From IMG/VR virus record IMGVR_UViG_3300008267_000004, positions 32,001 to 96,000 of that record: a stretch of 64,000 bases of DNA. The stretch is one strand, 5' to 3'. Of the stretch, positions 10,623 to 42,106 are shown piece by piece. The position numbers were made by a program, and so were the translations under genes. Every line of letters starts with the position of its first letter. Position 1 is the stretch's first letter. Source of the DNA: a virus. The notes below the pieces were generated by a model. The model was not told the origin of the DNA. It searched no databases and was given only the letters and a program-made list of their open reading frames with translations.

Positions 10623-11009
10623 TTAGTCTGGGTTAAGAATTAATTCGATACTATCTCTTTCTTTTAGAGAAGGAACAGAATAAGAAATTGAAATAAAAAC
10701 AGCATTTTGTTCTTGTGGCAAAATATCCGTTATATCTATATCTTGAATTATAATATATGGCATATATTTTTGTATTTGATTCCTTATTATTCTTTCCATA
10801 TCTATTTCAGATACTGATTCTTTTCTGTTAAAAAATAGCAATCTTTTAGCACCGACTCCATAATCAGTATTCATAATTCTCTCACCGGGATTAGTTAAGA
10901 TAAGCATTTTTAAATTTTGCTTTATAACCTCTCGTAGATCTTTATTCATCTTATAAAAACCATCACCAGCATCATATTTTAATGGAACTTGAACGGAATA
11001 CCCTTTCAT
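10623..11009 (-). CDS. Baseplate gp25-like protein (sheath initiator)
   Basis: QNLKMLILTNPGERIMNTDYGVG motif; next to the gp6-like gene. Confidence 0.9.
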   Translation of the reverse strand: MKGYSVQVPLKYDAGDGFYKMNKDLREVIKQNLKMLILTNPGERIMNTDYGVGAKRLLFFNRKESVSEIDMERIIRNQIQKYMPYIIIQDIDITDILPQEQNAVFISISYSVPSLKERDSIELILNPD

Positions 11010-11025
11010 CTATTTTCCTCATATT

Positions 11026-17000: not shown

Positions 17001-17706
17001 TTTCCTGTAAATAACCAATCCTAGGTATTTCTACTGGCTTTAAAAAGCTATATTCTAATCCTTCAATTGGAGTAAGCTGGTTTCTTCTTACAAAAAATTC
17101 AATAGGGCCAGAATCTAACATTAAAGACACTTTACTAAACAATCCAAGAATGCCGATAAAATCTTCTACTATGGTAACTGAATATTCAACCTCGGTTTGC
17201 TCTGCTTCTCTAGGTGGTCCCAAAGTTTCATTAAAGAAAGTTTGAGATATTAAATCTGTTGTTGTGGGTATTGCACCATATAAACCTTCAGATTCTCTTC
17301 TATCAATTACTGTATTTGCAACAGTTTTTGGAAATGAAAATTCTTGTGTTTCTGTAGATGATAAATTATTATCAATCCCCAAATCAGCAGCATAAGGCTC
17401 TTGTGGTTGAGCGTCTGGGAATGTAAGACCTTTTAATTCTTCGTCTGTAAGTTCGTCAAAAATTATCTCTTCTTCTTCCATATTTGATACTGGTGTTTCA
17501 GTATTAAAATCTGGCAACACTGAAAATTTAGTGTCTGAATTAGAAAATCTTTCAACAACTGGCTGTGTTAAATCTTGGTTAACTATACTATCAAAATCAT
17601 AGTATACAATCGATCCAACTGATAAAATATGAGTTGGCTTTTCTTCTCTATATGGTAATCTATTATTTTTATTTAATCTAGCGTATCTATCTGGGCTGTT
17701 AGACAT
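11026..17706 (-). CDS. Very large hypothetical protein, probably virion-associated
   Basis: 2226-aa intact ORF inside the baseplate module; no recognisable catalytic motif. Confidence 0.6.
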   Translation of the reverse strand: MSNSPDRYARLNKNNRLPYREEKPTHILSVGSIVYYDFDSIVNQDLTQPVVERFSNSDTKFSVLPDFNTETPVSNMEEEEIIFDELTDEELKGLTFPDAQPQEPYAADLGIDNNLSSTETQEFSFPKTVANTVIDRRESEGLYGAIPTTTDLISQTFFNETLGPPREAEQTEVEYSVTIVEDFIGILGLFSKVSLMLDSGPIEFFVRRNQLTPIEGLEYSFLKPVEIPRIGYLQETDIIGWSDKKPFIVYYDERSELYYCSVEAEYDGLELTDEKIQKYVEDAYFTGLRLIFKSNAKKNSEDYIKQMSDRFYLFGYARDWAIKLRPCSNFYTLVVFPKKYLSSTDLIDYRADPLQAAKDGVTGGLLDPSVNPEDIKYIVTYSFLNYNSFAETIKDISKILASRGEEQFNFALKAADQYMGALTADNYLELIELDLRKEAKKFYDKDNVGNFLITIKKLLEINTIEHDVLYTDATKNNIAFGLTDQFNIAYIDIVRDGIAQTFVIDGYIFENEFGSYGVISNRSGFFLYNYCTYKIITDLATYEGEWNKELRNNLDIDKYIEKFVIPQPKEIDIPKRDFDCAKNNMKKLWEDGIIKGYNSIKAVAPVAEANFKKQLAYARGGKRRWIDFDAEADKQAASTPAATLPTTDPEPPTFGDDTLSAIKNAGYGDWSKPGPAALHLLKKTLRETNFQRALLQQIICWIRDANNQQALANLDSQFNSDLKKRIQEALTKFFCTPFMDMLIKALAAYKVPKFNPSDMSKALRDAYVTALSQAIIETFNIAIKELIKLMANCSKQGQGKNSPFTSDQELGLSAALDAILDNQDNPFSNSSIADIYGAMGLPTGNSDEDIQERERAKEDLKNLIADIACLMNPTEICRLIAEGTATDDILSLVRAIIEAKYPNISSVLKTRSEVEYLFQKLGQILNISDVCKKLGDQIAQENTNICSTESATKALKDALAQNGLTPEQIEGLIADAEDEKNKRLSDLLDGVTRTPEQLPMLCRNGKPGIINPAKVDTNYLDMFQGTLQGSLQPYYEMFNSDLKEWSANMIENPKISLTPEEIKTLSAASTSPLGGSNASNTKAAEENREKLLAMLIAKGILVADYVLDENGGIKYEDYEKKTGAKQKEINGVKQWKLSDDAFPKPKSNDQSQQSESNENKNNVDTSNMVISPILTQTLERVDFLEITKNLSEIIINTRVNSDIEREKFKILAEAQLNTGIQDEIKRIAAEKMGTIYYQITTELVNGGITLLEQWAAGTIEEDAGFWIGLQDLEKRYKGGWDGWWSTLLAGLWAIYELLDVFIADITGAVRTQGAQRVGIGDVSQISTVNRSIRTEAARAAPAGTRVAVAKRADSVYTVTSGDTIVATYDSSYASTIQSKGKTSAEVVVLENEKKAAIDKRAAYENYLNNPSDPNAKSAAERFGITETTQQGLDAAKQAEKTATANLDNAQRQDEFLIPENKLGTTELFAGIDSLAEGISRDIKLFEESFAFKAISGIWTTILDAISGLQSEVSTLDAQLEDARKQLASADIAFPNYDIKYTFGSVISPERARTSEFLSQVSNINITKNLNPFISSSYLEEISPDIAMYIKNNNLLAGYNGSSSIQQYAFEKYMTQIRKIDPKEINYSDIESEFMSDIYNDLKQSFFYKKPDNIGNTPYKNMSNLKKFQATLREPPGTNSDQFCGINNNSLDLDEIIEDVINDFREEACNNEPPNPTGGKRENMHPTERAMSDAFLLATLRVYIYDYFLKGIFLFDKYPIGIVATDPMLEFLSRCFEIEMKSFEPIYYQRFLDQCVSYFYKKNPTESKKIEIKTGERYDTLSARTKKEIFKKVIKSQILYISTRVTKKINNVINEKNAAPWQRLFVYGDETKKYESQYELQQFENYDNIQGHILKFFENRDPSEKIFTVVKNSSQTKVPVAGGRVIDTKGETLELYFKSKKILVTKSKFKKSITFKFLFEFCFPIRKYISVVTMQAIMANNARLQSMKTFFSTKAALKARHNSLMAGNGYKNNNDLGGAPANGGNSTANSGDQEAGWQSLLPLILRLAVQTPWQMLKGLCEVGDPNVFLASLPYNIARPITLAIMNQIPMLPEKTYGPDDLKPPPPRIYEEGALKGLPYAEDVMRRIGFNMSHGLFYATPAAGLALTFCFIPPTPFGLAYYLLGCWYDDFIDDTSNNETVNTTNAINFLNVKSNYKADSCNIARMAKKALKPKIELTEEQMIDLQYS

Positions 17707-22141: not shown

Positions 22142-23086
22142 TTATACTCCTCTTATATTTGGATAATTTTTTTTAAACCAGTCACAAGTCTTCTTTATCC
22201 CTACTTCTAAACTTGTATACGTTTCTTCTTTCCATCCTAAATCTAGAAATTTTTTATTAGAAGTTGGTTTACGAATTTGTCCTTTTGGTTTTTTATTATC
22301 ATACGTTATATCACCATTATATTCTAATTCTTTAGAAATTAAAGTAATAACATCTTTTAATTTGTATTCTTTAGTAGATCCAATATTTACTGGATCTCCG
22401 GTATAATTATTATCTAATAAGAATTTTATCGCTTTAGCAATATCTTCAGCATAAGTAAACTCACGATAAACTTCACCATCACCCCAAACTTCAAACGATG
22501 GTTTATTATTAATTTTTGCCTCCCAGATTTTACGGATTAAAGATGGGATAACATGACCATTCTCAAGATCAAAATTATCATGTTCTCCATACATGTTGTT
22601 TGGAATAACTGATATATATTCTGTACTGTATTGTTGATTTGCTGCTTTTAATTGAACATCAACCATACGTTTTGCATAAGCATATCCAAAATTTGAATCA
22701 TGTGGAGGGCCATTATGAAGCTGATCTTCAGTTAGTGGATAATTTACATATTTTTCGTCTGGGTATATACACGTTGATAGACAACAAATTAACTTTGGGA
22801 CATCTGTAAATATACAAGATTGAATAATGTTGTTATTTATCTCAGAGTTTGTGTTATAAAAATCAGAAATATAGCGAGTATTTGCTTTTACTCCTCCAAC
22901 CTTTCCTGCTAAATGTATTACTGCTTTTATTTTTGATTCGGAGAATTCATTAAAATTATCAAAATATCGATGAGTATCATCATAGTTTTCTAAGTTTAAT
23001 TCTTTATGTGTTGGATAGAGAGCATCCGGTAATATTTTTTTAAATGCACTTCCAAGTAATCCAGAGCCGCCAGTTATAATAATCAT
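22142..23086 (-). CDS. fcl: GDP-L-fucose synthase (epimerase/reductase)
   Basis: TGGSGLLG, HLAGKVGGV, LSTCIYP, YAYAKR, PNNMYG, WGDGEVYREF. Confidence 0.9.
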   Translation of the reverse strand: MIIITGGSGLLGSAFKKILPDALYPTHKELNLENYDDTHRYFDNFNEFSESKIKAVIHLAGKVGGVKANTRYISDFYNTNSEINNNIIQSCIFTDVPKLICCLSTCIYPDEKYVNYPLTEDQLHNGPPHDSNFGYAYAKRMVDVQLKAANQQYSTEYISVIPNNMYGEHDNFDLENGHVIPSLIRKIWEAKINNKPSFEVWGDGEVYREFTYAEDIAKAIKFLLDNNYTGDPVNIGSTKEYKLKDVITLISKELEYNGDITYDNKKPKGQIRKPTSNKKFLDLGWKEETYTSLEVGIKKTCDWFKKNYPNIRGV

Positions 23087-23095: not shown

Positions 23096-23509
23096 CTAAT
23101 ATAATTCAGGAAAATCGGTACATACCCCTAATATATTTTTAGGTAGGTTTTTGTTGTGTCCAAATTCTACCGTAATCCCATCTTGTATATAAACACCAGG
23201 AAAACACCATAAATAATTTTTACTAGTTAAAGTAATTTTATCATTTTCATGCCAAAACCAATTTAACTCAGTATTTTTCAGTCTGATACAAGCATCAAAA
23301 TTTTTAGCATGTAGCCACATTTTATTGCTAAAGAAAAAATTTGTTACTTCGTATGTTGGTAAATCGTGTCCTAAAAACCATTTATTATTTACATACCAAA
23401 CATCTACTTCAACTTCAAATTTTTTTATTACTTCTAAGATCCTATCTGGATTGTTTTCCAGATTTCTTTCTATGCCATTTAAATTTCCTCTATGTGATAT
23501 AATTTTCAT
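23096..23509 (-). CDS. Short glycerophosphodiester phosphodiesterase-like protein
   Basis: IISHRGN..EVEVDVW..LGHD..WLHAKN. Confidence 0.7.
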   Translation of the reverse strand: MKIISHRGNLNGIERNLENNPDRILEVIKKFEVEVDVWYVNNKWFLGHDLPTYEVTNFFFSNKMWLHAKNFDACIRLKNTELNWFWHENDKITLTSKNYLWCFPGVYIQDGITVEFGHNKNLPKNILGVCTDFPELY

Positions 23510-24275
23510 CAGAAATTCTTTCTTTGTATTGTTCTTCTGTTAAATAACATGATAAATATTCTGGTTGATTAATCCATTTTCCAATATTTATAATACCTGC
23601 AGTGCTTTTTGTATCTATAACCTTATAGTTGTTTAATATATATTTCCACGAATCTCTTGTCAGAGTTATGTAGTCTTCTAGGGTTAAATCCTTGTAGATA
23701 TATTTTTTTATCAGATTAAAAGATAATATATGTTCAGTTCCAAAAAAAGAATTAGAAAAGTCTGTTTTCTCTAAGTCATCATATACATCACAAATTTTTT
23801 TAATATCTTCTTTCATGCCTAAATAAAACCAATCAGAAATTCTAAACCAAGGTTTTGGTTCTGATGTGGAGTCTGGGTTTATGGTCATCATATTACTGAC
23901 CACTACTTTACTATCAAAGATTTTATATTCTCCAAATGCTTTTTCAAAATTAAAATAACTAAAAATATTTTTAGTTACCAAACAATCATTTCTTATCTTG
24001 AATATAAGATCATTTGAACTTTCTTCTAGTGCTTTTTTAAGCCCATATAACTGTCTTTTTAGATTGCAATGTTGTTGTACAGGCAATAAACCATTAAAAG
24101 GCCCAGGTCCGGGATCTTTACAAAATAATATTTTATCATATCCGCTTAAATTATTATTTTGTCCTTCCCAAGTTGATATTATTAATTCTCCATCAAACCA
24201 TTCCCTTATTTGGTTTATGGATCTCTGCACCATATTATTTTGTATTTCGCCTTGAATTATTACTGTTTTTTCCAT
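23490..24275 (-). CDS. WavE-like polysaccharide synthesis protein
   Basis: TVIIQG..IISTW..KIRND..SDWFYLG; start moved to MEKTV at 24275. Confidence 0.6.
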   Translation of the reverse strand: MEKTVIIQGEIQNNMVQRSINQIREWFDGELIISTWEGQNNNLSGYDKILFCKDPGPGPFNGLLPVQQHCNLKRQLYGLKKALEESSNDLIFKIRNDCLVTKNIFSYFNFEKAFGEYKIFDSKVVVSNMMTINPDSTSEPKPWFRISDWFYLGMKEDIKKICDVYDDLEKTDFSNSFFGTEHILSFNLIKKYIYKDLTLEDYITLTRDSWKYILNNYKVIDTKSTAGIINIGKWINQPEYLSCYLTEEQYKERISDENYIT

Positions 24276-24868
24276 ACAAAAGAAATTCCATGATCTGTTA
24301 AACATTCTTTCTGAACTACCCAATCAAAATTTAAATTTTGGACAAACAGTTTTGGTCCTGGATGGTTGTTCGTATCGTGAAATCCAACAATTCCATATTC
24401 GGATAATAAGTTTGTAAATTCCCACTCTGCATATACTTGATTTATACTATGCCAACCATCTATAAAAATAAAATCTATTTCCTCAACTCCTTTAGATTTT
24501 ATGAATTCTAATATTTCAGAATAATTTTCAGATTTTGTTTGAAGAGTATAAACATTATTCTCTTCGTCATTCAAAAATGAACAATCTCTGATATCTACTC
24601 CAATATATACACAGTCTTTGTTTTTGTTTTTTACAAGTGTATATGAACTACCAAATTCACTTCTAGCAATTCCTATCTCTAAAATAGCTCTACATCTATC
24701 TTTAACTGTTAAAAAATATTTTTTTAAGCTTTCATGATTGCATGGAGTAAATTCACCATTTTGTCCATCATAATATACATCAGTTGTTTCACTTAGAGGA
24801 AGATCTGAATCATCTCTTGAATCATTAAATCTTATGTCTCTTAATAAATCAGATTGCCATTTTTTCAT
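24260..24868 (-). CDS. Class I SAM-dependent methyltransferase
   Basis: ILEIGIA..GVDI..IDFIFIDGWHS..GIVGFHD. Confidence 0.8.
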   Translation of the reverse strand: MKKWQSDLLRDIRFNDSRDDSDLPLSETTDVYYDGQNGEFTPCNHESLKKYFLTVKDRCRAILEIGIARSEFGSSYTLVKNKNKDCVYIGVDIRDCSFLNDEENNVYTLQTKSENYSEILEFIKSKGVEEIDFIFIDGWHSINQVYAEWEFTNLLSEYGIVGFHDTNNHPGPKLFVQNLNFDWVVQKECLTDHGISFVWKKQ

Positions 24869-26061
24869 TATTTTACCAATCCCCATTTTTCTATAGCTAT
24901 ATTATATTCAGATTTATAATTTTTATCAATTGACTGTCTCATTGCCATAGCACCAGAAATTGTACCATTAGGATGACCATGGACAGCACCACCCGCATTT
25001 GCTAGATAGTCAATACCAACTTTTGAAGTTACATACTCCACTAACCCTGGGTGCATACCACAACTTAATGCTGGGAGTGTGTTTCCATTTCTTAAAGTTG
25101 AGATACATTCTAAAATTTCTTCTGGATCGTCATTACTATATCCACCAATCATACCAGTTTGGATGGTATCAACGCCCATTAAAGTAGCTAAATAACACAT
25201 AACCTTCCAAGAAATACTGTATTTATGATCTTTCTCTGTAAAAACTTTTGCGCCGCTACTCTGATAGTGTAAAAATAAAGGTAGATTTAATTTTCTTATG
25301 CTATTATAAGAACCTAAGCCGCTAAACACGTTAATATGTACACCATTTCCTCCTAATTCATATACTCTTTTTACTCTATCTACAAGAATATGTGGATCAC
25401 AATTTATGGTGTGACAGAAAACAACTTTACGGTTTTGGCTTGCTAGATAATTTGAAACAATCTCTACTCTTTTTTCAAGAGGAGCCACCACTGGGTTGCT
25501 CATGATTTCATCTTCTTTGATAAAGTCGGCACCACCATCAACCATTTGTTTTACCATTTCTAGTAAAATATATGGAGTTACTCCAATTTTTGGCTTAACA
25601 ATACTTCCGAACAGGGGTTTATTATATTGTCCTGTAAAATTCCTAAATCCACTGATTCCAAATTTTGGACCTAAAAAATTGTCTGTAACAGATTTAGGTA
25701 ATTTTAAATCAATTAATCTACATCTTTCAACTATATCTATATCAACATGACCACCCATTAATTGGCATATCATGTGAGAAATTCCATCAGATTGCCAGTC
25801 ATTGTTTGCAACAGGAAATGCAATATTTACTTCACCTTCAGTTTTTTCGCTCAATTCTGATTCTGAATGTAAAATAAGGCAAGAATGATTTTGAAACAAT
25901 TCTTCAGTTTCCCATTCGTTTCTAACATTTGGATTGCCAACGCTTTGTCCGATTGCTAAATTCCAAGCAGCATCCTTTAAATTAGTTTTTGACTTAATTT
26001 TATATTTTGCTATATAATATTTCTCGTAATCCAACTCACTAGTAAAAATATTAAATTTCAT
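24868..26061 (-). CDS. RuBisCO-like protein (form IV)
   Basis: IVKPKIG (K175/K177), GGADFIKEDE (K201/D203/E204), GGAVHGHP. Equivalents of E60, N123, H294, R295, H327 and K334 appear substituted. Confidence 0.9.
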   Translation of the reverse strand: MKFNIFTSELDYEKYYIAKYKIKSKTNLKDAAWNLAIGQSVGNPNVRNEWETEELFQNHSCLILHSESELSEKTEGEVNIAFPVANNDWQSDGISHMICQLMGGHVDIDIVERCRLIDLKLPKSVTDNFLGPKFGISGFRNFTGQYNKPLFGSIVKPKIGVTPYILLEMVKQMVDGGADFIKEDEIMSNPVVAPLEKRVEIVSNYLASQNRKVVFCHTINCDPHILVDRVKRVYELGGNGVHINVFSGLGSYNSIRKLNLPLFLHYQSSGAKVFTEKDHKYSISWKVMCYLATLMGVDTIQTGMIGGYSNDDPEEILECISTLRNGNTLPALSCGMHPGLVEYVTSKVGIDYLANAGGAVHGHPNGTISGAMAMRQSIDKNYKSEYNIAIEKWGLVK

Positions 26062-26068: not shown

Positions 26069-26959
26069 TCATAATTGTAAAATATTTTTTACAATTTCAT
26101 AATATTTTTCGAAGCATTTTTCGGGAGTGTGAAACTTTGTGTAAGATTCATACGCAGCTTCTCCATAGTCAATATATCTCTTATTTTCCATTGTGTAAAG
26201 TATTTTTTCTTTTAAATCCTGAAAATCATCTCTTATTTCTATATAACTATCGAATAGTATACCATCTTTTGATGTAGATTTTAGTTTTAATTTTGGCATT
26301 ATTATAGCGCATTTTGTACTTGCCAATTCCCAAGTTCTTTTAGAGTCATAAGAATTACCAAAATAATTTAGTCCTATTTTTGAAGAATTTATAACTTCTG
26401 TATATTTTTTAGTAATTTTATCAGCTACACCTACATGATCATCAACATCAATATGCCAGTTCATATTTTTTAACTCATTCACTGATAGTTGCTTAATGTG
26501 CTCAACAAACGGTTTCCTTCTTCCAGAAGTCATTCTTCCTATAAAAGATAAATCGATCTCTTTTAATTGAAATCTTTGATCATATTTTGTAGCAACAGGA
26601 AAATGAAATCCATATACAGGGCTTTTCCATGGATTTTTTGAATTATCTGTCAACTCTCTATGCATTATTAAGTCTGGTTTTCTATTGCTCCAAATTTGTA
26701 TATCTTCAAAGTCGGTATCATCGTGTTGAATAAGATTAGAGAATCTATAATATGTATCTATTATTTTATTAGTTATTGGTATAGTATTCCACTCATGAAG
26801 ATATAAAACAATATTTTGATAATCATGTACTGGCTTAAAATCTGCTAGGTTTGTTTCATATACATAATCACACTTATAGCCTAATTCTTCAAATTTTTTG
26901 AAATAAAAATTTGCATTATCAACCCAAGAATAAGAAAAAAATAAAAAATCTTTAGTCAT
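26069..26959 (-). CDS. Glycosyltransferase-like protein (CgeB-type C-terminus)
   Basis: DLSFIG..INSSKIGLNY..KRTWELAS. Confidence 0.6.
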   Translation of the reverse strand: MTKDFLFFSYSWVDNANFYFKKFEELGYKCDYVYETNLADFKPVHDYQNIVLYLHEWNTIPITNKIIDTYYRFSNLIQHDDTDFEDIQIWSNRKPDLIMHRELTDNSKNPWKSPVYGFHFPVATKYDQRFQLKEIDLSFIGRMTSGRRKPFVEHIKQLSVNELKNMNWHIDVDDHVGVADKITKKYTEVINSSKIGLNYFGNSYDSKRTWELASTKCAIIMPKLKLKSTSKDGILFDSYIEIRDDFQDLKEKILYTMENKRYIDYGEAAYESYTKFHTPEKCFEKYYEIVKNILQL

Positions 26960-27280
26960 TTATACCTCATATTTATCATTTGGAACAGAAGCTGTTTTTA
27001 CAACAACTATTTTGCAATCTTCTAAAAATTCAGGATCTGCTATTTCTAGCGGTTCAAGAATAAAAATATCACCTGGGTTGATTTCTTTTCCGCATATTAC
27101 CATCTTACCAGAAATTAAGCAGTTAATTTCTGTAGCAATTTTATGATAATGTTTAGGCCACTTTTCACCTTTTTTATGAATAAGTATTCCAACTTCAAAG
27201 AGGTCAGTTTTATAAACGCTCGGATTGAAATTTCCTACCATCCAACCTCTCCACATATTATTTATATTATCTATTTTCAT
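26960..27280 (-). CDS. Cupin-fold protein
   Basis: GWMVGNFNP..KHYHKIATEIN..INPGDIF. Confidence 0.75.
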   Translation of the reverse strand: MKIDNINNMWRGWMVGNFNPSVYKTDLFEVGILIHKKGEKWPKHYHKIATEINCLISGKMVICGKEINPGDIFILEPLEIADPEFLEDCKIVVVKTASVPNDKYEV

Positions 27281-28017
27281 CTCTTAAGCCTATATTCTAA
27301 ATCATATCTTAAATTATTATCTATTGTTAAAGGTATTTTTAGATCATTATTTTTTAAAGTATATTCAAGCATGGTTTCTGCAGAAAAATTATTATATTTT
27401 TTAAAATTTTCAATACTCAAAGCATAGATATTTTTCATAATATCAAAAGCTTCAGGTTTTATATATACGATATAGTCTCTTATATTGTAATAATTTTCTA
27501 CTCCATAAGAATCTCCAACGACAATTTTTTCATCCACAAAATTAAATGGCTTTAATAAATCAATATCAAATCGACTTCTGATAAGAAAATCATATTTTTC
27601 ATAGTTTTTTATAGATTTAAAACCCTCAGACACAGCATACCATTGCGAAGTTAATCTATTTACTGCCTCTTCTGGTACATTTCCACCTTGATATGTTTTG
27701 TATTGACTATTTTCCGTATTCCAAGTTCCATATTTGGTAGGATGTATTTCTATATTTTTTTTATTGTATTCAAAAAAACCCCTAGATTCATTTATTACTA
27801 TCACCTTAGTCCAAGGAGAATAAACAGATAATAATTTTTTCATAGACTCTTCAGAGTGATAAAAATCAGTAAGATGATCCGTATTATTCCAGGTGGAGAT
27901 GTATATATCACAATCATATAAATCTAATAAATTTTTCTTTAAATTAAGAAATGTATCCATATATGTTCTTAAATGACCGCTTAGTACTAATGCTATTTTT
28001 TTATTTTCTGTTTTCAT
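27277..28017 (-). CDS. Glycan-locus protein (GT/WavE-like)
   Basis: KIALVLSGHLR..DIYISTW..YDFLIRSRFD. Confidence 0.55.
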   Translation of the reverse strand: MKTENKKIALVLSGHLRTYMDTFLNLKKNLLDLYDCDIYISTWNNTDHLTDFYHSEESMKKLLSVYSPWTKVIVINESRGFFEYNKKNIEIHPTKYGTWNTENSQYKTYQGGNVPEEAVNRLTSQWYAVSEGFKSIKNYEKYDFLIRSRFDIDLLKPFNFVDEKIVVGDSYGVENYYNIRDYIVYIKPEAFDIMKNIYALSIENFKKYNNFSAETMLEYTLKNNDLKIPLTIDNNLRYDLEYRLKR

Positions 28018-28729
28018 AAATTTTTATGTCCTCCGGCGTTCCTAAAGAATAAAATTCACCCTTATTGAGAGAGTGATAACCTATGTTCATACCTTTTTTT
28101 ATTAAATAATTATATGTTTTAGATACATAAAATTCATTATTAACTCTATCATTGTTTTTTAACAATTCCACCGCAGAGTTTACAAAATAGCTTCCTTTTC
28201 TCCAATAATGAATACCGCATAAAGCCAAATTAGAAATAGCAGTTTTTTCATCTAACAGTAGACCTAAATTATTTTCATCTGTTTTTATAAAACTATAAGG
28301 ACTCTTTTCTCCCACTATTATATTATCATAAGGATAAGTAGCAACACAGCCATCGAGATTTTTTCTTCGACATGAATTTAAAAATAAGTTACTATCCCAG
28401 ATAGTTCTTTGATCACAATTTGTAGTGATAAGTTCTGTATCATTATCTATAAATTCTTTTGCTAATAATATAGAGCTTACTGTACCATCAGTTAAATAAT
28501 CAATTTCAATAATTATAGAGTCGGGCTTAGTATTATATAATACATCTTTTAGCTTATCAGAAAAGTTACTTTTTCTAATTACAAATATATATTGTCCTTC
28601 TATTCCTAGACTATCTATAGCGTGTTGAACTATTGTTTTTTCCTCTATTTTAATTAATGGTTTTGGATCTAAATATCCCGCATCAAAAAATCTCTTCCCA
28701 AGACCAACCATCGGTATAACTATATTCAT
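28001..28729 (-). CDS. Sugar-phosphate nucleotidyltransferase
   Basis: IVIPMVGLGKRF..GY..PKPLI..NCD..NNEFYV. Confidence 0.85.
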   Translation of the reverse strand: MNIVIPMVGLGKRFFDAGYLDPKPLIKIEEKTIVQHAIDSLGIEGQYIFVIRKSNFSDKLKDVLYNTKPDSIIIEIDYLTDGTVSSILLAKEFIDNDTELITTNCDQRTIWDSNLFLNSCRRKNLDGCVATYPYDNIIVGEKSPYSFIKTDENNLGLLLDEKTAISNLALCGIHYWRKGSYFVNSAVELLKNNDRVNNEFYVSKTYNYLIKKGMNIGYHSLNKGEFYSLGTPEDIKIYENRK

Positions 28730-29334
28730 ATGTATTCCTTCATAAGGTCTATATTAACCTGTTTAGCATTATCGACTTTTATTATAAAAGCGCCGGCACC
28801 AGAAGCTGCTTCAATTCCTTTTGGAGAATCTTCCACTATTATAGTTTCGTTTGGAGAGACATTAAAAAAATTAATACAATTTATATAACCTTCTGGGTTT
28901 GGTTTTGGAGAATTAACGTCTTGATTTGTGATCAGTTTATCTAACGAGGATAAAACACCTGCTTTTTTCAGGATCAATTCGGCAGTTTTTCTTATGCTAT
29001 TAGTATAGCAAGCAATTTTAATATTTTTATCTTTTAAGTATTTTAATAGTTCTACTTTAGAAGAATCATACGCGCAAAGATCATTTATTAATTTTATAGT
29101 ATTTTCTTGTTTTAGTGATTCTATGGTATCAAATAAATTTTCTGTGACCATCCCTTTATCTTTTAATTTTTTTAATTTTATTTTTGTCGGTAAACCATTA
29201 TATTCTTTATAGTGTTCTTCCAGGGATAGCTCATAATTACAAACATTCTTAAGTGCTAAATTAAAAGCTATTCTATGCCAATCACATGCGTCTACTAAAA
29301 CGCCGTCCATATCAAAGATAACTAATTTAATCAC
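28726..29334 (-). CDS. HAD-family phosphatase/phosphomutase
   Basis: FDMDGVL, TNS, KPNP, VEDS..G. Confidence 0.85.
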   Translation of the reverse strand: MIKLVIFDMDGVLVDACDWHRIAFNLALKNVCNYELSLEEHYKEYNGLPTKIKLKKLKDKGMVTENLFDTIESLKQENTIKLINDLCAYDSSKVELLKYLKDKNIKIACYTNSIRKTAELILKKAGVLSSLDKLITNQDVNSPKPNPEGYINCINFFNVSPNETIIVEDSPKGIEAASGAGAFIIKVDNAKQVNIDLMKEYI

Positions 29335-29686
29335 CTTTTTCTATCCTTATGCTATCCTCATCAAAATGTTGAGTAGAAAATTCAAATAGTTCTGTATCTT
29401 GTAAAGCAACCATTTGATGTCTTAGGCCCGTTTTTACATGAAAACTATCGCCTTTTTCTAAAATAATAGTATTTGCATTTAAAATATTGTCATCATCCCC
29501 ATAAAAAACTTTTAATTTTCCACTTTGAATATAAAAAACTTCATCTTTTACTTTATGATAATGCCAAGAGCATTTTTTTCCTTTTATAAAATAAAGTAAC
29601 TTACCGCAATATTTGTTATTATTTGTAATCCATTTTTCAAATCCCCATCCTTTGGGAACAAAAATTTGCTCAGAAGAAGTCAACAT
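29327..29686 (-). CDS. Cupin, mannose-6-phosphate isomerase/lyxose isomerase-like
   Basis: VPKGWGFEKW..CSWHYHKVKDE..GLRHQM. Confidence 0.75.
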   Translation of the reverse strand: MLTSSEQIFVPKGWGFEKWITNNNKYCGKLLYFIKGKKCSWHYHKVKDEVFYIQSGKLKVFYGDDDNILNANTIILEKGDSFHVKTGLRHQMVALQDTELFEFSTQHFDEDSIRIEKGD

Positions 29687-29999
29687 CTTTAAACCCCTTA
29701 TCATCTACGTAGAAATCGGCGGCTGGCTTACCTAGCTTTAGGTAGCTAAATTTCAAACCCCAACTTTTCAATTGTTCAAGAGTAAAATAAAAAAATCTTT
29801 CATTAGCCCTATCAACATCTCCATTATATCTATCCATTCCTCTAGCTGTATACATCACTATCCTATGACCCTCATCGTAAAGTTTGTTAATTTTTTCAAT
29901 CCTATCTACAAAGGGTTTTGCGTCTTCGTACTTTCCATTTGTTAAAGTACATATTGTTCCATCTATATCAAAAACGTAAGTCATTTTTAACATCCTCAA
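29670..29999 (-). CDS. Short HAD phosphatase of capsule-locus type
   Basis: FDIDGTIC..YTARG..KPAADFYVDDK. Confidence 0.8.
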   Translation of the reverse strand: MRMLKMTYVFDIDGTICTLTNGKYEDAKPFVDRIEKINKLYDEGHRIVMYTARGMDRYNGDVDRANERFFYFTLEQLKSWGLKFSYLKLGKPAADFYVDDKGFKDVDFF

Positions 30000-30741
30000 A
30001 GTTTATAATTGCAGTCCCAGATTTACTAACAACACTGGAGGCGCATAGATTGGCAAATATTATAGCCTCTGATATAGAATTAGTTAATAAATATTGCACA
30101 CAAAGAGCTGCTATAAAAGTATCCCCAGCTCCACTAACATCAAATACGTCTACCTTTTTACTAGGATATATATTCCCATTATATAAAGCGCCTTTTTCTC
30201 CCATGGTAACTATTAATCTATTTTTTTGAGGAAGGGATTTAGATCTATTGTATTCATCTTGATTTATTTTTACAAATACATTTTCACGATCAAAAATTTG
30301 TAAATCCGGCTTTTTTGAATCAACGAAAATGGGACCACTAAAGTTGAATAAGGATCTTATATTGTTTTCATTTATAGATCCTTTATTATAGTCAGATACT
30401 ATAATTGCATGATATTTATCTAATTTTTCTTTAGGAATTTTAATTTCTTCAGATTGTTTTTCATAGTCTACTCTTAATAGGTGCTGCTTTGACTTGCTAT
30501 CAATATATCTTTCTTTAATCGTATCCATGTTAGAAACAATTAAATGCGCCTGTACATTTAACGCTAACAAGTTTTTATAAACGTTTCCAGACATACCTTC
30601 TGTTTTTATCTCTCTCTCAAAACAAAACACTGGGACAGGTGCTTCCGGGCTTAGTCTTTCACATTTTCCATACTTAAATACATCTTGACAATAATCACCT
30701 ATTACCAATATTTTTAATAATGTTAGTTGTTGAATATCCAT
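29968..30741 (-). CDS. rfaE1: HldE-like heptose-7-phosphate kinase domain (PfkB family)
   Basis: RLSPEAPVPV, IVSDYNKG, DVSGAGDTF. Confidence 0.85.
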   Translation of the reverse strand: MDIQQLTLLKILVIGDYCQDVFKYGKCERLSPEAPVPVFCFEREIKTEGMSGNVYKNLLALNVQAHLIVSNMDTIKERYIDSKSKQHLLRVDYEKQSEEIKIPKEKLDKYHAIIVSDYNKGSINENNIRSLFNFSGPIFVDSKKPDLQIFDRENVFVKINQDEYNRSKSLPQKNRLIVTMGEKGALYNGNIYPSKKVDVFDVSGAGDTFIAALCVQYLLTNSISEAIIFANLCASSVVSKSGTAIINFEDVKNDLRF

Positions 30742-31090
30742 TTATATATTTAAAAATTACAACTTCAGCTAGGTCATTTCCTACAACCTCTTCTTTAGTG
30801 TAATCTCCACCTTTCACTATAATATGTGGTTTTATTTTTTGTAAAAGTTTATACGGTGTATCTTCTTCAAAAATTATAACCTGGTCTACAAATCTAATAC
30901 ATTCTAAAATATATTTTCTATCTTTTTCTTTATTTATGGGTCTAGTCTCACCCTTTAATCTTTTAATACTATCATCGCTATTTAGGCCGACTATTAGATA
31001 ATCTCCTAAGCTTTTAGCGTATTCTAATAATCTTATATGCCCAGTATGTATTATATCAAAACATCCATTTGTAAAGATAATTTTACTCAT
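30695..31090 (-). CDS. rfaE2: HldE-like heptose-1-phosphate adenylyltransferase domain
   Basis: FTNGCFDIIHTGH, VGLNSD, KGGDY, YSTT. Confidence 0.9.
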   Translation of the reverse strand: MSKIIFTNGCFDIIHTGHIRLLEYAKSLGDYLIVGLNSDDSIKRLKGETRPINKEKDRKYILECIRFVDQVIIFEEDTPYKLLQKIKPHIIVKGGDYTKEEVVGNDLAEVVIFKYINGYSTTNIIKNIGNR

Positions 31091-31766
31091 TTAATATTAC
31101 CCAATTATTTTTATAATATGGATTTGCATTATTTTTTCTTATATATCTATGTATAAACTTTGGCTTATCTTTTAATTCTGGGATATGATCAATCATGGCC
31201 GCAAAAGAACTATCCATACAATGTATTTCTTCGCTATCCTCTATCAATTTAATATAATCAAAAATACTATTTTGTGAATCTTTTCCGAGTATATGATTTG
31301 GCCGGTATATTTTATGTTTAAAATTATTTTTTATAACAAGACCTCTGCTGATATCATCGTGAACAAATATATATTTATGCCCTATTTCAGATCTAAGTAA
31401 GTTTTCTTTTTCTTTATCTCTATTAATATAAAAACTTTCCCATCTTTTTTCATAATCAATATTACTTTGTCTATAAAATGCTTTACAAAAATCCTCATTT
31501 CGTAATATAAAATTAGGCTGTTCAAAACATCCAATTTTTATTGGTAGGAATACTCTCTGATATTTTTTTATCATATCATTATCATCGTCTACTGGGAGGA
31601 TAGTTATATCCTCTAGATCTTTGAACATTGCCTTGACGTTTAACAAATTATGTTTTTTAACGGGATACACGATAGTATCATATGTTTTTAATAATTCTCT
31701 TGTCATACCATTACAAATTATGTGATCACCTAATCCAAGGTGATGAAATAAATAACCATTTTTCAT
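31083..31766 (-). CDS. Glycan-locus hypothetical protein (GT-like)
   Basis: HHLGLGDHIICNG..IHCMDSSF. Confidence 0.55.
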   Translation of the reverse strand: MKNGYLFHHLGLGDHIICNGMTRELLKTYDTIVYPVKKHNLLNVKAMFKDLEDITILPVDDDNDMIKKYQRVFLPIKIGCFEQPNFILRNEDFCKAFYRQSNIDYEKRWESFYINRDKEKENLLRSEIGHKYIFVHDDISRGLVIKNNFKHKIYRPNHILGKDSQNSIFDYIKLIEDSEEIHCMDSSFAAMIDHIPELKDKPKFIHRYIRKNNANPYYKNNWVILNE

Positions 31767-32425
31767 TTAATAGCCGCCTTTAAAATTTCTCTATGGGATG
31801 GATCACATACAGTATCGTCATGATTAAAAGGTTCTCCAACAAAATTATATTCTTCTCTTTTGCTTGGAAATGGATTTTTTACAAAAAATTCATCGTGTAT
31901 TACGCAATTATTCTTAAAAATATTCCATATATATTTTTGTAAAAAAATTTGATCATAGTGATATTGCTCTGGGACGTTCTTAGCTAAATTAAGTAAATTT
32001 TCTACGTCAGGTATTAACCCACCAACTATGCCAAACATGCCAGCTAATATTGGAAAATTACCATGATATGGATGATCTTTCATTATATGTAAATATTTTT
32101 CTGAGCCTATCCATTCATTAACGGCATCTACTTCTCTTTTAGAAAATCTAGAATCTGTATCTCGAAAAATTATTCTTTCTATACCATCTTCCGACATAGG
32201 AAGAAATCTTTTTGTTGTAAAAGTCCAATCAGGATTATCGTTACATACTATTACTTCTGAGTTTTTTTCTAGTTCCTCTAATATATTTTTTGGAACATTA
32301 TTAGAACAATAAAAACGACAAACCCAGCCGGGATAAAATTTCTCGGCTAGGTTTGCATTTTTTATAGCACCAATTGTATACTTTGGATTATTTCCCCATA
32401 AAGAATAAGAAATTATTTTTTTCAT
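31763..32425 (-). CDS. Glycan-locus hypothetical protein (GT-like)
   Basis: ISYSLWG..FRDTDSR..HIMKDH..DQIFL; start moved to MKKII at 32425. Confidence 0.55.
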   Translation of the reverse strand: MKKIISYSLWGNNPKYTIGAIKNANLAEKFYPGWVCRFYCSNNVPKNILEELEKNSEVIVCNDNPDWTFTTKRFLPMSEDGIERIIFRDTDSRFSKREVDAVNEWIGSEKYLHIMKDHPYHGNFPILAGMFGIVGGLIPDVENLLNLAKNVPEQYHYDQIFLQKYIWNIFKNNCVIHDEFFVKNPFPSKREEYNFVGEPFNHDDTVCDPSHREILKAAIK

Positions 32426-34386
32426 TACGCAGCTTGCGTCAACCTTTTTTGGAAAATAGCAAGATATTTTTGGAAGATTTCTTTTTCTTCTTTTCGTTTC
32501 CAAGAATTATTATCTTGATTGGTTGACATTCCTTTAGGATTAAAATAATACAATCCTAAAGTTTTGTTAAGCTTTAAAAACTTAGAACCTTCAAAAGTGC
32601 ATCTTAGCCACATTTCCCAATCACTTGCACTACGATATTTTTCTTCAAAATATCCATATTTATCATGTATTGATTTACGCCACATTGGCATACAATGCAA
32701 AGGATTTCCTCTTAACATAGATTCTTCACTAAATGGTTCTGATGGATAATTTGATTTAGCAGTATTTTTATCCCATGTTTCATTAGCGTTGTTAGTTACT
32801 AAGTTGTTTGCATATACCCCATCAATCTCCGGACTTGTATATAATTTTTTTGCTAATTCTTCAAGAGCATTTGGAAATTTACGATCATCTAAATTAGCAT
32901 TAGTAATATACTCACCAGAAGCTTCTTTAATTGCAATATTCCAAGCGGCATAAATACCTGGGTCTTTCTCCAGCTTAATGTATTTAATATTTTCAGGATA
33001 CTGTTCTAAATATTTATTTATTGTTTCTTCTTCATTTTCTGGTGAGTTACAGTTGACTAGAATTAGTTCACATTTTTCTTTAAAAATACTTTGGGAAGTT
33101 ATGTCCTCTAAAAATCCTTTAATATGTTCTTCCCCGTTGTACACTGATGTAATTACAGATATTTTTGGAAGATCAGAAATTTCAACTTTTTGATTTTTCT
33201 CTCCAGTAACTAATTCACAAAATCTTGTATACATTTTTTCTTCAGTGAATTGCTCTCTGACTGCTTTATTTAATTTCTTTGACCAACTCTTAAATCTATT
33301 ATAGTCTTTATAAACTTCTCTTAATTTAGCCTTATAGCTTCTATGTACTGGGTAAGCCCAACTGGTTCCCTCTTCTAAAACTCCTTGCCAAACATGCTCT
33401 TTAGCAATTGGTTTTAACTCATAGTCTACTTTTGCAAATAATTTTTTCTGTGCGCCATCTTCATCTTCCACTGTAAGAAAATCTAAATGCCCGCTCCAAT
33501 CAGTTGCTACAACAGGTAGTTCGTTTGTGGTGGCTTCAAATAGTGGAAAACCAAATCCTTCTCCATGCGTTGTTGATACTATTGCTTTTATTTTTGGATT
33601 ACTATACAAACTAGCCATTTCAGATTCTGTTAAGTACCCATGAAGTAAATAAACAGAACATTTACGATCTTTATGGCTAGATAATAGATTTTGTAATCTT
33701 TGATCAACTGTTTCTCTATCTAAGATAGAATCATTTGTCATATTAATTTTTAATACAAGTCCAACTTCTTCGTTTTTAAATTCTTCTAAAAATCCTACAA
33801 TTGTTTGCTCTAAATTTTTTCTTGGACCCCACTGACATACAGACAAAAAATTAAAATCGTGTTTAAGGTCTAGTTCTATTGGAGATACAGTAAAATCTCT
33901 TACCGGAAAATGGCAAACATCCACTCTTTTTTCCACTTTATAATTCTGGCCCTTGTCATCTGAGAATATAGTGTTAATAAATGAAGACTTTGCGTGCTCA
34001 CTAATAACAATAATTTGATCCATTTGATTAGAGGGATTTAGCCATGCTGGGGAGATATTATTTGTCTCTATACCAGCTGTATAGCCTATATTTTTAGCTG
34101 CTATTGGCTTCCATTCATTTGGAATTGAAATTTGAACTGATATGTCAAAATTTGGATTATTATTTGTTGACGCAATGTAATTATGGGTCTCTAAACAAAT
34201 TTTATGTAACTCTCTTGTCTCTTCATCTTTATCCGCAATATTTCCGTTTCCTCCCCAATTTGTAGGGATAATGTATAGGTCATTATAGTCTAATGTATTT
34301 TTTAAAGATCTAAATGCAAACCTTGCCATCTCTCCATAGCCACTTCTACTAAATACTGGTCCTGTGATAACTATTTTTTTCTTCAT
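32425..34386 (-). CDS. Fused GT4-like plus GT2 glycosyltransferase
   Basis: GEGFGFPLFEA in the N-terminal part; ISVITSVYN..TNANLDD in the C-terminal part. Confidence 0.85.
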   Translation of the reverse strand: MKKKIVITGPVFSRSGYGEMARFAFRSLKNTLDYNDLYIIPTNWGGNGNIADKDEETRELHKICLETHNYIASTNNNPNFDISVQISIPNEWKPIAAKNIGYTAGIETNNISPAWLNPSNQMDQIIVISEHAKSSFINTIFSDDKGQNYKVEKRVDVCHFPVRDFTVSPIELDLKHDFNFLSVCQWGPRKNLEQTIVGFLEEFKNEEVGLVLKINMTNDSILDRETVDQRLQNLLSSHKDRKCSVYLLHGYLTESEMASLYSNPKIKAIVSTTHGEGFGFPLFEATTNELPVVATDWSGHLDFLTVEDEDGAQKKLFAKVDYELKPIAKEHVWQGVLEEGTSWAYPVHRSYKAKLREVYKDYNRFKSWSKKLNKAVREQFTEEKMYTRFCELVTGEKNQKVEISDLPKISVITSVYNGEEHIKGFLEDITSQSIFKEKCELILVNCNSPENEEETINKYLEQYPENIKYIKLEKDPGIYAAWNIAIKEASGEYITNANLDDRKFPNALEELAKKLYTSPEIDGVYANNLVTNNANETWDKNTAKSNYPSEPFSEESMLRGNPLHCMPMWRKSIHDKYGYFEEKYRSASDWEMWLRCTFEGSKFLKLNKTLGLYYFNPKGMSTNQDNNSWKRKEEKEIFQKYLAIFQKRLTQAA

Positions 34387-34387
34387 A

Positions 34388-36599: not shown

Positions 36600-36607
36600 T
36601 TTAATCC

Positions 36608-42103: not shown

Positions 42104-42106
42104 AAT

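Follow-up and report, generated by a model that had tools for sequence, protein, structure and literature searches.

A large freshwater T4-like myophage encodes, within a glycan operon, a RuBisCO-like protein (RLP) that, judged by sequence, is a divergent form-IV RLP and belongs with neither the MtnW enolases nor the OiaX decarboxylases. We predict that it is a catalytically competent form-IV-like enzyme, which probably serves nucleotide-sugar or nucleotide-polyol biosynthesis. To our knowledge, characterised RLPs all act in sulfur salvage or sugar-acid catabolism; if our reading is true, this clade, which is tied and sometimes fused to a nucleotidyltransferase (NTPt) in glycan loci, would represent the first biosynthetic use of the RuBisCO fold and would also define an activated sugar or polyol of a new kind.

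The RLP gene and its operon

The gene lies in the window (the whole 64,000-nucleotide stretch of DNA that was analysed), which is part of an IMG/VR record of 187450 bp with a CheckV completeness of 100%. The genome carries a T4-type baseplate wedge protein, PhoH, tmRNA and tRNAs, and the RLP gene is confirmed as phage-borne, on the complete 187-kb genome of a large freshwater T4-like myophage. DNA sequencing runs sharing at least half of the words were labelled freshwater, lake water and 'fungus' metagenome, and a search of sequencing runs for RNA data with matching words listed none. Elsewhere in the window, a GC-rich stretch at 56-62 kb was considered as an rRNA operon or other large known RNA, but nothing in Rfam matched it up to E 0.1 and the idea was rejected.

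The initial annotation, made from the DNA letters alone, had placed an RLP at 24868-26061, translationally coupled to a methyltransferase and embedded in a sugar-biosynthesis operon, and all three points were borne out. The reading frame is intact (397 aa), has exactly this span on the minus strand, and matches both RuBisCO_large (PF00016; 1.9e-33, 116.5 bits, cut-off 30.1) and RuBisCO_large_N (PF02788; 4e-4, 21.0 bits, cut-off 20.7), with a GAGGA ribosome-binding site 7 nt past the stop of the upstream gene. Its own stop codon, TAA at 24870-24868, overlaps the start of the methyltransferase gene, which is either the ATG at 24886 (a 19-nt overlap) or the ATG within TAATG at 24868. Pfam annotation of the surrounding genes showed a glycan (LPS-type) operon adjoining giant tail-fibre-like ORFs, with the following features.

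22142-23086, minus strand: NAD-dependent sugar epimerase/reductase at the downstream end of the operon (Pfam Epimerase, 7.6e-45)
23096-23509, minus strand: mini-GDPD (glycerophosphodiester-phosphodiesterase-like), 137 aa (HRG / EN / ExD / GHD motifs)
23490-24323, minus strand: WavE-like LPS-synthesis family protein (Pfam WavE, 7e-22)
24260-24886, minus strand: SAM-dependent methyltransferase (Methyltransf_24-like), coupled to RLP (Pfam 5e-4, below cut-off)
24868-26061, minus strand: RLP, form IV-like, of the NTPt-linked clade, 397 aa (Pfam, residue map, clade support)
26069-26959, minus strand: glycosyltransferase-like protein, which in this phage separates the cupin gene from that of RLP (Pfam Glyco_trans_1_2, 1.6e-5)
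26960-27280, minus strand: 106-aa cupin, probably a metal-dependent sugar-phosphate isomerase (invariant HxH...E motif)
27277-28017, minus strand: DUF7796-type viral protein, putative transferase (phrog_13607)
28001-28729, minus strand: NTPt, 4evw-like subfamily (Pfam NTP_transferase, 1.3e-4; family profile against PDB)
28726-29334, minus strand: HAD-IA (beta-phosphoglucomutase-like) phosphatase/mutase, overlapping the NTPt start (Pfam HAD_2, 5.5e-31)
29327-31090, minus strand: accessory genes, comprising a 125-aa cupin, SIS-like ORF, PfkB kinase and cytidylyltransferase-like protein (split HldE-like heptose module; Pfam)
31083-36617, minus strand: upstream glycan operon, comprising two unknowns, a GT1+GT2 fusion, GT4 and GDP-mannose 4,6-dehydratase (Pfam)

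The profile of the 106-aa cupin matched PDB cupins at 1.3e-6, and its AF2 model (pLDDT 94) was nearest to the mini phosphomannose isomerases 7zvm/7zvy (4e-6, 26% identity). Homology of this family with the PF06560 cupin of the outgroup locus P0137 was unsupported beyond the fold (hhalign E 0.36). The mini-GDPD profile matched the PDB GDPD 7e0v at 1.7e-3 and its AF2 model (pLDDT 96.7) had GDPDs as best folds (1v8e, probability 0.99); this protein is also present in DPANN loci and cyanophage S-CAM9, and is annotated as GDPD in phage DSL-LC03. The HAD matched an NCBIfam subfamily of the bPGM family at 1.2e-28, below cut-off, while clear Methyltransf_24 proteins are found in the Nanoarchaeia and P0140 cassettes. 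Protein-atlas matches of the DUF7796-type protein were viral clusters named DUF7796 or glycosyltransferase; its family occurs in 21 loci, with several copies in S-CAM9 and S-SKS1, and its profile gave no match against PDB sequences. The glycosyltransferase-like gene was found in only 4 related viral loci, and a WavE gene also follows the NTPt module on an Azospirillum plasmid. The accessory genes are not conserved beside RLPs elsewhere, and among them the SIS-like ORF is 34% identical (2e-14) to the S-SKS1 'phosphoheptose isomerase'. A like position beside tail-fibre-like genes is described for the host-recognition cluster of pelagimyophages, in a paper without mention of RuBisCO (PMC7029224).

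Active-site residues

RLP has the two domains, PF02788 and PF00016, and the Mg2+/carbamate site that define the RuBisCO large-subunit superfamily, and among proteins of solved structure it is best matched by MtnW of G. kaustophilus (2oej; 7.6e-35, about 28% identity). Residues were assigned from a multiple alignment that included L066 (a form-III-like RuBisCO), P0212 and L117 (bona fide MtnW and OiaX, respectively) and P0137 (a basal clade member that forms a bridge), and are given below as RuBisCO position followed by RLP position. The alignment agreed with the initial annotation that the enolisation residues are kept (K175=K156, K177=K158, K201=K182, D203=D184 and E204=E185), and S379=S333, G381=G335 and G403/404=G357/358, which form the phosphate loop beside the carbonyl, are kept as well. 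By sequence, RLP thus retains all that Mg2+ binding through a carbamylated Lys and enolisation of a 2-keto sugar phosphate require.

Five of the six substitutions listed in the initial annotation, E60 to G38, H294 to Q267, R295 to S268, H327 to Q301 and K334 to Y308, were recovered, but the sixth was not: N123 corresponds to H105 and not to Gly, the Gly that had been named being its neighbour G104 (=G122). This position is Gln in 28 of the 65 clade members. A pairwise HMMER register to MtnW (H294=H265, R295=Y266) was overruled by the multiple alignment with form-III-like RuBisCO and P0137. The residues that bona fide RuBisCO uses for CO2 addition, hydration and C-C cleavage, K334, E60, N123 and H294, are thus all absent as read from the alignment (Y308, G38, H105 and Q267), and RLP is predicted to be unable to fix CO2. 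The protein of this phage also lacks the distal phosphate site, since R295/H298/H327 are S268/A271/Q301, with K/R, D and H at these positions in another half of the clade. Its scores against NCBIfam equivalog cut-offs were 159 against 497 for form III, 97 against 489 for form II and 158 against 438 for form I/large subunit.

Across 65 distinct clade sequences G38, Q39, N43, P44, K156, K158, K182, D184, E185, Q267, Y308, S333, G335 and G357 are invariant, which is far above chance, and the catalytic core is unchanged down to about 35% identity. RLP carries the clade signature, namely GQSxGNP (G38-P44), Q267 at H294 and Y308 at K334, and the invariance of these elements favours an altered active site maintained by selection over decay. 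The absence of several canonical RuBisCO residues could suggest a non-catalytic or decaying remnant, and a true carboxylase might also be considered, yet we regard either as extremely unlikely. The reading frame is intact, metagenomes hold thousands of matches, with the 90%-identity clusters at 73-84% identity numbering in the hundreds, and both the core and the clade-specific residues do not vary; a carboxylase is further opposed by the replacement of K334, E60, H294 and N123, with no small subunit or PRK.

Placement relative to MtnW and OiaX

In our tree the NTPt-linked RLPs form a single branch (support 99-100) which takes in DPANN archaeal sequences, falls outside the described RLP groups labelled in it and is distant from bona fide MtnW and OiaX; the phylogeny suggested as a check in the initial annotation thus set the clade apart from methionine-salvage MtnW. 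Against the MtnW equivalogs TIGR03332 and NF007095 RLP scored 138 (cut-off 513.6) and 164 (cut-off 409), with the positive control P0212 scoring 706 and 677, and against the OiaX equivalog NF042437 it scored 141 (cut-off 700), with the control L117 scoring 782. The MtnW Lys at the N123 position, which we take to be the general base (K98 in G. kaustophilus), aligns with His105 of RLP, and this residue is His or Gln in the clade. Searching the phage genome for MtnA/IF-2B, PNP_UDP_1 (PNP/MtnP-type) and PRK genes returned none, and the conserved neighbours of the clade in about 60 loci included no methionine-salvage genes (mtnA, mtnK/P, mtnB, mtnX, mtnD).

These results bear on the possibility that RLP is a methionine-salvage-type auxiliary gene whose product takes an MTA-derived ketose 1-phosphate as substrate, being a DK-MTP-1-P enolase of the MtnW type or a DeepYkr-like 5-methylthioribulose-1-P 1,3-isomerase, with the cupin as a methylsulfurylase or dioxygenase and NTPt secondary or acting on a DXP-like product. 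The top PDB and NCBIfam matches of RLP are indeed MtnW, its operon has a HAD and a cupin as Bacillus has MtnX and MtnD, radical-SAM genes, whose products yield 5'-deoxyadenosine, often lie nearby, and the sole phosphate loop kept is on the carbonyl side, as expected for a ketose 1-phosphate. None-the-less, we consider a salvage role unlikely given the scores far under both equivalog cut-offs, the replaced base Lys, the position in the tree apart from bona fide MtnW, the missing salvage genes and a cupin closest to phosphomannose isomerases, while the RLP::NTPt fusion and conserved glycan context described below would go unexplained.

The basal sister of the clade, P0137, belongs to a bacterial sugar-catabolic locus with an FGGY kinase, transketolase and ABC transporter, where it directly follows a cupin-type sugar-phosphate isomerase (PF06560), and the pairing of an RLP with a cupin isomerase on sugar phosphates therefore predates the biosynthetic cassette. 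This locus, as nearest outgroup, and the fact that the characterised non-salvage RLPs known to us are all catabolic (apiose pathways; NCBIfam OiaX model) would fit a catabolic OiaX- or P0137-like RLP that feeds an unusual sugar into central metabolism during infection, with the adjacency of NTPt a coincidence of operon packing. However, the clade has no conserved kinase, transporter or transketolase, the OiaX score is a fraction of its cut-off, and NTPt adjoins RLP in about 90% of the loci, which span three domains, and is fused to it in one relative, so that coincidence does not explain the pairing; we therefore judge a catabolic role very unlikely.

Linkage to a nucleotidyltransferase

NTPt is encoded 1.9 kb upstream of RLP on the same strand, within a gapless run of overlapping genes. 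Its family profile matched PDB entry 4evw at 2.7e-35 and HddC/GMPP at about 1e-9, and its GxGxR...K and EK..SN motifs are invariant. Clustering of about 60 clade loci, drawn from phages, SAR11-type single-cell contigs, DPANN archaea and Nonomuraea, identified NTPt in 55, mini-GDPD in 43, cupin in 39 and methyltransferase in 30, and the IMG/VR loci (n=52) gave 48, 39, 36 and 29, respectively. Conversely, about 70 other RLP/RuBisCO loci (<=33% identity) were checked for NTPt and none had it. The pairing is seen on the SAR11-type contigs L055 and L056 and in Woesearchaeota, Nanoarchaeia and another archaeon, and in the more remote members P0140 and P0131 the gene order is still RLP, 111-aa ORF, NTPt. 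DPANN loci additionally contain a Wzx flippase, GT2, DegT, methyltransferases and a full-length GDPD, and the cultured actinomycete Nonomuraea rosea JCM 17326 has the full cassette (mini-GDPD, RLP, cupin, NTPt and GT2). The neighbourhood analysis of homologues that the initial annotation had called for therefore ties the clade to NTPt in glycan loci of phages, DPANN archaea and an actinomycete. Of the partners it had named, the NTP-transferase was right, whereas the conserved cupin is the 106-aa and not the 125-aa protein, and the HAD occurs only in a subset; the conserved partners are NTPt, the 106-aa cupin, the methyltransferase and mini-GDPD, although the cupin is absent in about a third of loci.

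Fusions provide a second line of evidence. P0122 is a natural RLP::NTP_transferase fusion, 54% identical to RLP, and the NTPt subfamily is also fused to DHBP synthase (PF00926, 5e-65) in the cultured Synechococcus phage S-SKS1 and to HAD in the cultured cyanophage S-CAM9 and in L044, these fused NTPts being 36-39% identical to NTPt. DHBP synthase uses ribulose 5-phosphate and proceeds by an enediol route. A complex prediction for RLP and NTPt, run without control pairs, scored 0.00 and carries no weight either way. Related base modules exist in the cultured cyanophages S-CAM9, S-PRM1, DSL-LC03 and S-SKS1; for RLP itself tblastn gave no match in 50,697 GenBank phage records, so no cultured phage among these encodes it.

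In many phage loci the cassette adjoins replication genes rather than structural genes, with DnaB-like and DEAD-box helicase genes flanking it, and phages with sugar-nucleotide pathways for DNA glycosylation are established. The same chemistry could thus yield an NDP product that is the sugar donor for hypermodification of phage DNA bases. We think this improbable, as the genome is without a thymidylate-synthase-like (dCMP/dUMP hydroxymethylase) gene, the cassette in this window is within an LPS-type operon beside tail-fibre-like genes, and the archaeal and Nonomuraea cassettes accompany Wzx flippase and GT2 genes.

Proposed function

Our favoured reading, which we hold with moderate confidence, is that RLP works by enolisation as an isomerase or epimerase of ketose phosphates and that its product is nucleotide-activated for a glycan. 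We infer that it would remove a proton from a ketose monophosphate and return it elsewhere, its activity being that of a 3-epimerase or of a 1,2/1,3-isomerase; in loci that have it, the small cupin may carry out a further aldose-ketose isomerisation, and the HAD, where present, may move or remove the phosphate. NTPt would then turn the product into an NDP derivative, the phage transferases (DUF7796, WavE, GT-like) would put this on a glycan of the host envelope or virion, and the coupled methyltransferase would O-methylate it. A biosynthetic role on a ketose phosphate had been proposed in the initial annotation and is favoured by the NTPt linkage, the P0122 fusion and the separate clade, but the 'branched' sugar suggested there would be only one of several options.

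Within this reading the leading candidate for the activated species is a primary phosphate ester, R-CHOH-CH2-OP, as in CDP-glycerol, CDP-ribitol and CDP-xylulose, which would account for the recurring mini-GDPD and for the fusion of NTPt to DHBP synthase; we know of no established role for mini-GDPD in nucleotide-sugar synthesis. As a counterpoint, the EK...SN...G.Y signature that marks sugar-1-phosphate nucleotidyltransferases is present in NTPt, and a glycosyl-1-phosphate route, with the HAD as mutase, would be the alternative. The RLP product is expected to have a primary phosphate and this route would therefore need a mutase step, but the HAD is absent from most loci.

For the clade as a whole, an evenly balanced proposition is that the RuBisCO fold was recruited for biosynthesis, RLP catalysing the reaction (enolisation, epimerisation or isomerisation) that commits a substrate to an undescribed pathway to a nucleotide-activated ketose, ketol or alditol phosphate, which some cyanophages would enter through DHBP synthase instead. 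The end product would decorate envelope or virion glycans, possibly phosphodiester-linked and O-methylated, in abundant aquatic phages, DPANN archaea and some bacteria. The RLP family is very abundant in aquatic metagenomes, and as its genes sit where large phages encode host recognition, the enzyme's product probably has an effect on recognition between phages and their hosts among the major bacterioplankton of fresh and marine waters.

Comparison with known systems

The initial annotation had described the role as one not known before. Our literature search found no functional study of phage RLPs, but the proteins themselves are not new: Jaffe, Castelle, Dupont & Banfield (2019, Mol Biol Evol 36:435; PMC6389311) report 'form IV-like' RLPs of phages (Myoviridae) and Beckwithbacteria and leave the function 'unclear'. 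Those RLPs are on large myovirus-type contigs from many environments and diverge strongly from every other RLP; they retain some of the key residues, and relatives of them occur in prokaryotes with tiny cells. Our RLP resembles them in its myovirus-type genome (complete, 187 kb) and its divergent branch with DPANN relatives, and the NTPt-linked clade, judged by that published description, is almost certainly the same. The available portion of that paper differs in describing neither fusions nor any association of the RLPs with a nucleotidyltransferase, a cupin, a methyltransferase or a GDPD (PMC6389311).

Compared with MtnW/YkrW of Bacillus and Geobacillus (PDB 2oej, 2zvi), RLP shares the fold and length, K175, the carbamylated Lys, the Asp and Glu, and the GG phosphate loop, whereas MtnW has its catalytic Lys at N123 where the clade has His or Gln, retains H294 where RLP has Gln, and is found in another context. 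OiaX, the 3-oxo-isoapionate-4-phosphate decarboxylase, and related RLPs of apiose pathways act on sugar-derived ketoacid phosphates outside sulfur metabolism, but OiaX has KPALG in place of KPKIG, is catabolic and lies far off in the tree.

The DeepYkr RLP (5-methylthioribulose-1-P 1,3-isomerase belonging to the MTA-isoprenoid shunt found in R. rubrum and R. palustris) has chemistry like that which we propose, performing enolisation only on a ketose monophosphate to give a ketose omega-phosphate, and it too is an RLP encoded beside a small cupin, in its case a methylsulfurylase. In the NTPt-linked clade, however, there is no mtnP/mtnA context, the loci are NTP-transferase-tied glycan loci, and the cupin, beside RLP in 39 of about 60 loci, is phosphomannose-isomerase-like, in a comparison set with no labelled DeepYkr RLP or Rru_A2000-type cupin.

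Finally, in the TarI/TarJ pathway to CDP-ribitol, the S. pneumoniae AbpA/AbpB pathway from CDP-xylulose to CDP-arabinitol, and the IspD reaction, the primary phosphate of a pentulose phosphate or derivative is the site of activation, and transfer gives a phosphodiester-linked unit. We know of no RLP used in any of these. Their logic is the one proposed here, in which the RLP or DHBP-synthase step would be followed by NTPt, with mini-GDPD acting on the diester, although their nucleotidyltransferases are IspD-family enzymes whereas NTPt is RmlA/GMPP/HddC-like.

The RLP gene and its active site

The RLP gene (24868-26061, minus strand) is a single 397-aa ORF that fills these coordinates, with a ribosome-binding site (GAGGA) 7 nt past the stop of the upstream gene. 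Its own stop overlaps the start of the methyltransferase gene (24260-24886), the shared stretch being 19 nt or, if the start is the one in TAATG, a single base, which agrees with the translational coupling proposed in the initial annotation. Both RuBisCO large-chain domains were matched above Pfam cut-offs, and the closest solved structures were MtnW methionine-salvage enolases and archaeal form III RuBisCOs (~1e-35 to 1e-29). Every NCBIfam equivalog model matched by the RLP scored well under its cut-off, including those for MtnW (164, cut-off 409), form III (159, cut-off 497) and the catabolic decarboxylase OiaX (141, cut-off 700).

Active-site residues were mapped by alignment with L066 (a form-III-like RuBisCO with all canonical motifs), with the bona fide enzymes MtnW P0212 (706 bits) and OiaX L117 (782 bits), and with members of the NTPt-linked RLP clade. 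The pairwise HMMER register near H294 was two positions off and was corrected using P0137, a basal member of the clade ('VPIHVQRGGDMAYT' against 'VPIHMHRAMHAAFT').

Active-site residues of RuBisCO and their equivalents in the RLP
K175, K177, K201, D203, E204: K156, K158, K182, D184, E185; kept
S379, G381, G403/404: S333, G335, G357/358; kept
E60: G38; replaced
N123: H105; replaced (initially read as Gly)
H294: Q267; replaced
R295: S268; replaced
H298: A271; replaced
H327: Q301; replaced
K334: Y308; replaced

All five enolisation residues said to be kept (K175, K177, K201, D203 and E204) aligned to identical residues. The replacements described for E60, H294, R295, H327 and K334 (by G, Q, S, Q and Y) also stood, but that of N123 had to be revised, as the alignment places H105 and not Gly at this position. 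Judged by this alignment, the enolisation site is intact and the carboxylase residues are lost. Across 65 distinct clade sequences the catalytic core was invariant together with G38, Q39, N43, P44, Q267 and Y308, and the pocket positions N123, R295, H298 and H327 occurred in two covarying versions, H-S-A-Q (the window phage's type, 29 sequences) and Q-K/R-D-H. This combination of an invariant core and invariant replacements with a pocket in two covarying versions points to an active site that works, has been re-specified and is under selection.

Linkage of the RLP clade to a nucleotidyltransferase

Metagenomic relatives of the RLP number in the thousands, with the best 120 clusters all 72-84% identical. 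It is encoded on 53 IMG/VR contigs (55-76% identity), and tblastn found it in no GenBank phage record. In a search of 1.8 billion representatives the clade was graded from 58% to ~32% identity, followed by the general RLP/RuBisCO background. Using tblastn with window proteins, the nucleotidyltransferase NTPt (28001-28729) was found in 48 of 52 IMG/VR RLP loci, a 137-aa ORF (23096-23509) in 39, a 106-aa ORF (26960-27280) in 36 and the methyltransferase in 29, the window's HAD (28726-29334), 125-aa cupin, PfkB kinase and Gmd being rare. De novo clustering of neighbours in ~60 loci left this ranking unchanged (55, 43, 39 and 30, respectively) and added FkbM methyltransferases and GT2-like, GT1 and radical-SAM/SPASM genes.

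The window NTPt falls in the subfamily of PDB 4evw (2.7e-35), with heptose- and mannose-1-phosphate guanylyltransferases next (1e-9). The cupin encoded by the 106-aa ORF has an invariant HxH...E site, and its model (pLDDT 94) has 104-112-aa phosphomannose isomerases from Thermococcus as nearest folds. The 137-aa ORF has glycerophosphodiester phosphodiesterase motifs (HRG, EN, ExD and GHD) and is modelled as a reduced GDPD barrel (pLDDT 96.7); this mini-GDPD is a core cassette member.

Among species-representative genomes, the clade was carried on short contigs of a Pelagibacteraceae and another alphaproteobacterial single-cell genome, by Woesearchaeota, Pacearchaeota, Nanoarchaeia and one further archaeon, and by Nonomuraea rosea. 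NTPt adjoined the RLP in every clade locus with flanks and was absent from ~70 other RLP/RuBisCO loci in these genomes. The Nonomuraea locus comprises mini-GDPD, RLP, cupin, NTPt and GT2, bounded by an integrase and a transposase, while archaeal loci also hold a Wzx flippase, GT2, DegT, methyltransferases and full-length GDPD, and the cassette order is repeated on further contigs (P0140 and P0131). In P0122 (54% identical) the RLP is fused to an NTP_transferase domain. The initial annotation had set the RLP in a glycan cluster, and neighbourhood analysis of homologs bears this out by tying the clade to NTPt in glycan loci, a coupling that is almost always genomic and sometimes physical.

In a FastTree phylogeny of 179 sequences all NTPt-linked RLPs formed one branch (support 99; 100 including P0137), with a Pelagibacteraceae contig as nearest neighbour of the window RLP. 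MtnW and OiaX lay far from this branch, placing the RLP apart from the methionine-salvage enolase MtnW. P0137, the basal sister of the clade, has no NTPt link and lies directly behind a cupin-type sugar-phosphate isomerase (PF06560) in two bacterial assemblies, at a locus also encoding a GntR regulator, FGGY kinase, split transketolase, class II aldolase, glycosidases and an ABC transporter. The lineage thus seems to have started out in sugar-phosphate catabolism alongside a cupin isomerase, and the biosynthetic cassette looks to be derived from that setting. One P0137-type catabolic locus (L139:1-17287, bacterial assembly GCA_023488455.1), where the PF06560 cupin is a PGI, may encode a new sugar pathway that depends on an RLP.

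NTPt modules without an RLP

The cultured cyanomyophages S-CAM9, S-PRM1, DSL-LC03 and B23 encode a HAD::NTPt fusion and no RLP, followed by a DUF7796-like gene, HAD, mini-GDPD and glycosyltransferases. Alphaproteobacterial plasmids carry, in this order, GDPD-like, HAD, NTPt::NTPt tandem and NTPt-like genes, and Synechococcus phage S-SKS1 encodes an NTPt::DHBP-synthase fusion. Judging from these RLP-less examples, HAD, NTPt, mini-GDPD and transferases form a widespread base module, for which DHBP synthase and the RLP, together with its cupin, appear to be alternative front ends. RLP-type enzymes and DHBP synthase share pentulose phosphate substrates and enediol intermediates.

The plasmid modules are on Azospirillum lipoferum 4B plasmid AZO_p6 (L137), where WavE is added, and a Rhizobium sp. 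K1/93 plasmid (L138), where erythritol-catabolism-type genes adjoin; both tandems are annotated 'glycosyltransferase family 2'. The S-SKS1 fusion (475 aa; L135:6001-7428, NC_020851.1 38066-39493) is annotated as DHBP synthase only. Its N-terminal nucleotidyltransferase is 38% identical to the window NTPt, its DHBP_synthase domain is bona fide (5e-65), and a SIS-type isomerase and transaldolase lie downstream.

The phage genome

The source IMG/VR record is complete (187,450 bp, CheckV) and encodes PhoH and a T4-type baseplate wedge protein, for which the nearest cultured phages are only 31% identical; sequencing runs with DNA of this stretch included freshwater and lake metagenomes. Near PhoH are a tmRNA (tag ANDDVDSEFYALAA), tRNA-Ala and tRNA-Gly (42030-44406). 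Giant minus-strand ORFs of at least 2455 aa and of 2226 aa (3-17706) lie on either side of the baseplate wedge gene, directly downstream of the glycan operon, and are probably fibre or host-recognition proteins. Separate genes at 29670-31090 make up an ADP-heptose-type module. One, a SIS-like ORF, shares 34% identity with the 'phosphoheptose isomerase' of S-SKS1; the others encode a short PfkB kinase and a cytidylyltransferase-like protein of 131 aa. GC rises to 0.44-0.50 at 55800-61300, compared with ~0.30 elsewhere; ORFs here are all below ~230 aa and on both strands, and the stretch gave nothing in Rfam up to E 0.1, no tandem repeat and no blastn match to GenBank phages.

Proposed role and comparison with known systems

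MtnA/IF-2B, PRK, MtnP-type and thymidylate-synthase-like genes are missing from the phage genome, which weakens a role for the RLP in salvage, in RuBP-based metabolism or in DNA modification. We propose that the RLP would epimerise or isomerise a ketose monophosphate, the cupin and HAD would adjust the product, NTPt would activate it, and the transferases and methyltransferase would complete the final steps. Because of the mini-GDPD and the DHBP-synthase fusion, we favour as the activated species an ester of R-CHOH-CH2-OP type, by analogy with CDP-glycerol/ribitol/xylulose logic. A classical NDP-sugar route would be the alternative, since NTPt has motifs of the sugar-1-phosphate type.

Other architectures were seen among metagenomic representatives. 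P0174 (583 aa) has a TIR_2 domain fused to a full RLP 31% identical to the query, which looks like a defence-type architecture. P0155 (726 aa) and P0166 (742 aa) have an IF-2B family domain, of ribose-1,5-bisphosphate or MTR-1-P isomerase type, fused to RuBisCO with strong Pfam scores, and may place two consecutive nucleoside-pathway steps on one chain.

A 2019 report describes phage RLPs as a large divergent 'form IV-like' group of unclear function (PMC6389311). The window gene is almost certainly a new member of this published clade, and our literature search found no later functional study of phage RLPs. The role suggested here by sequence and gene context would add a new functional variant to the RuBisCO superfamily. 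RuBisCO itself makes a 3-epimer via misprotonation, and the R. rubrum RLP catalyses a 1,3-shift, which resembles the enolisation-only isomerisation that we propose.
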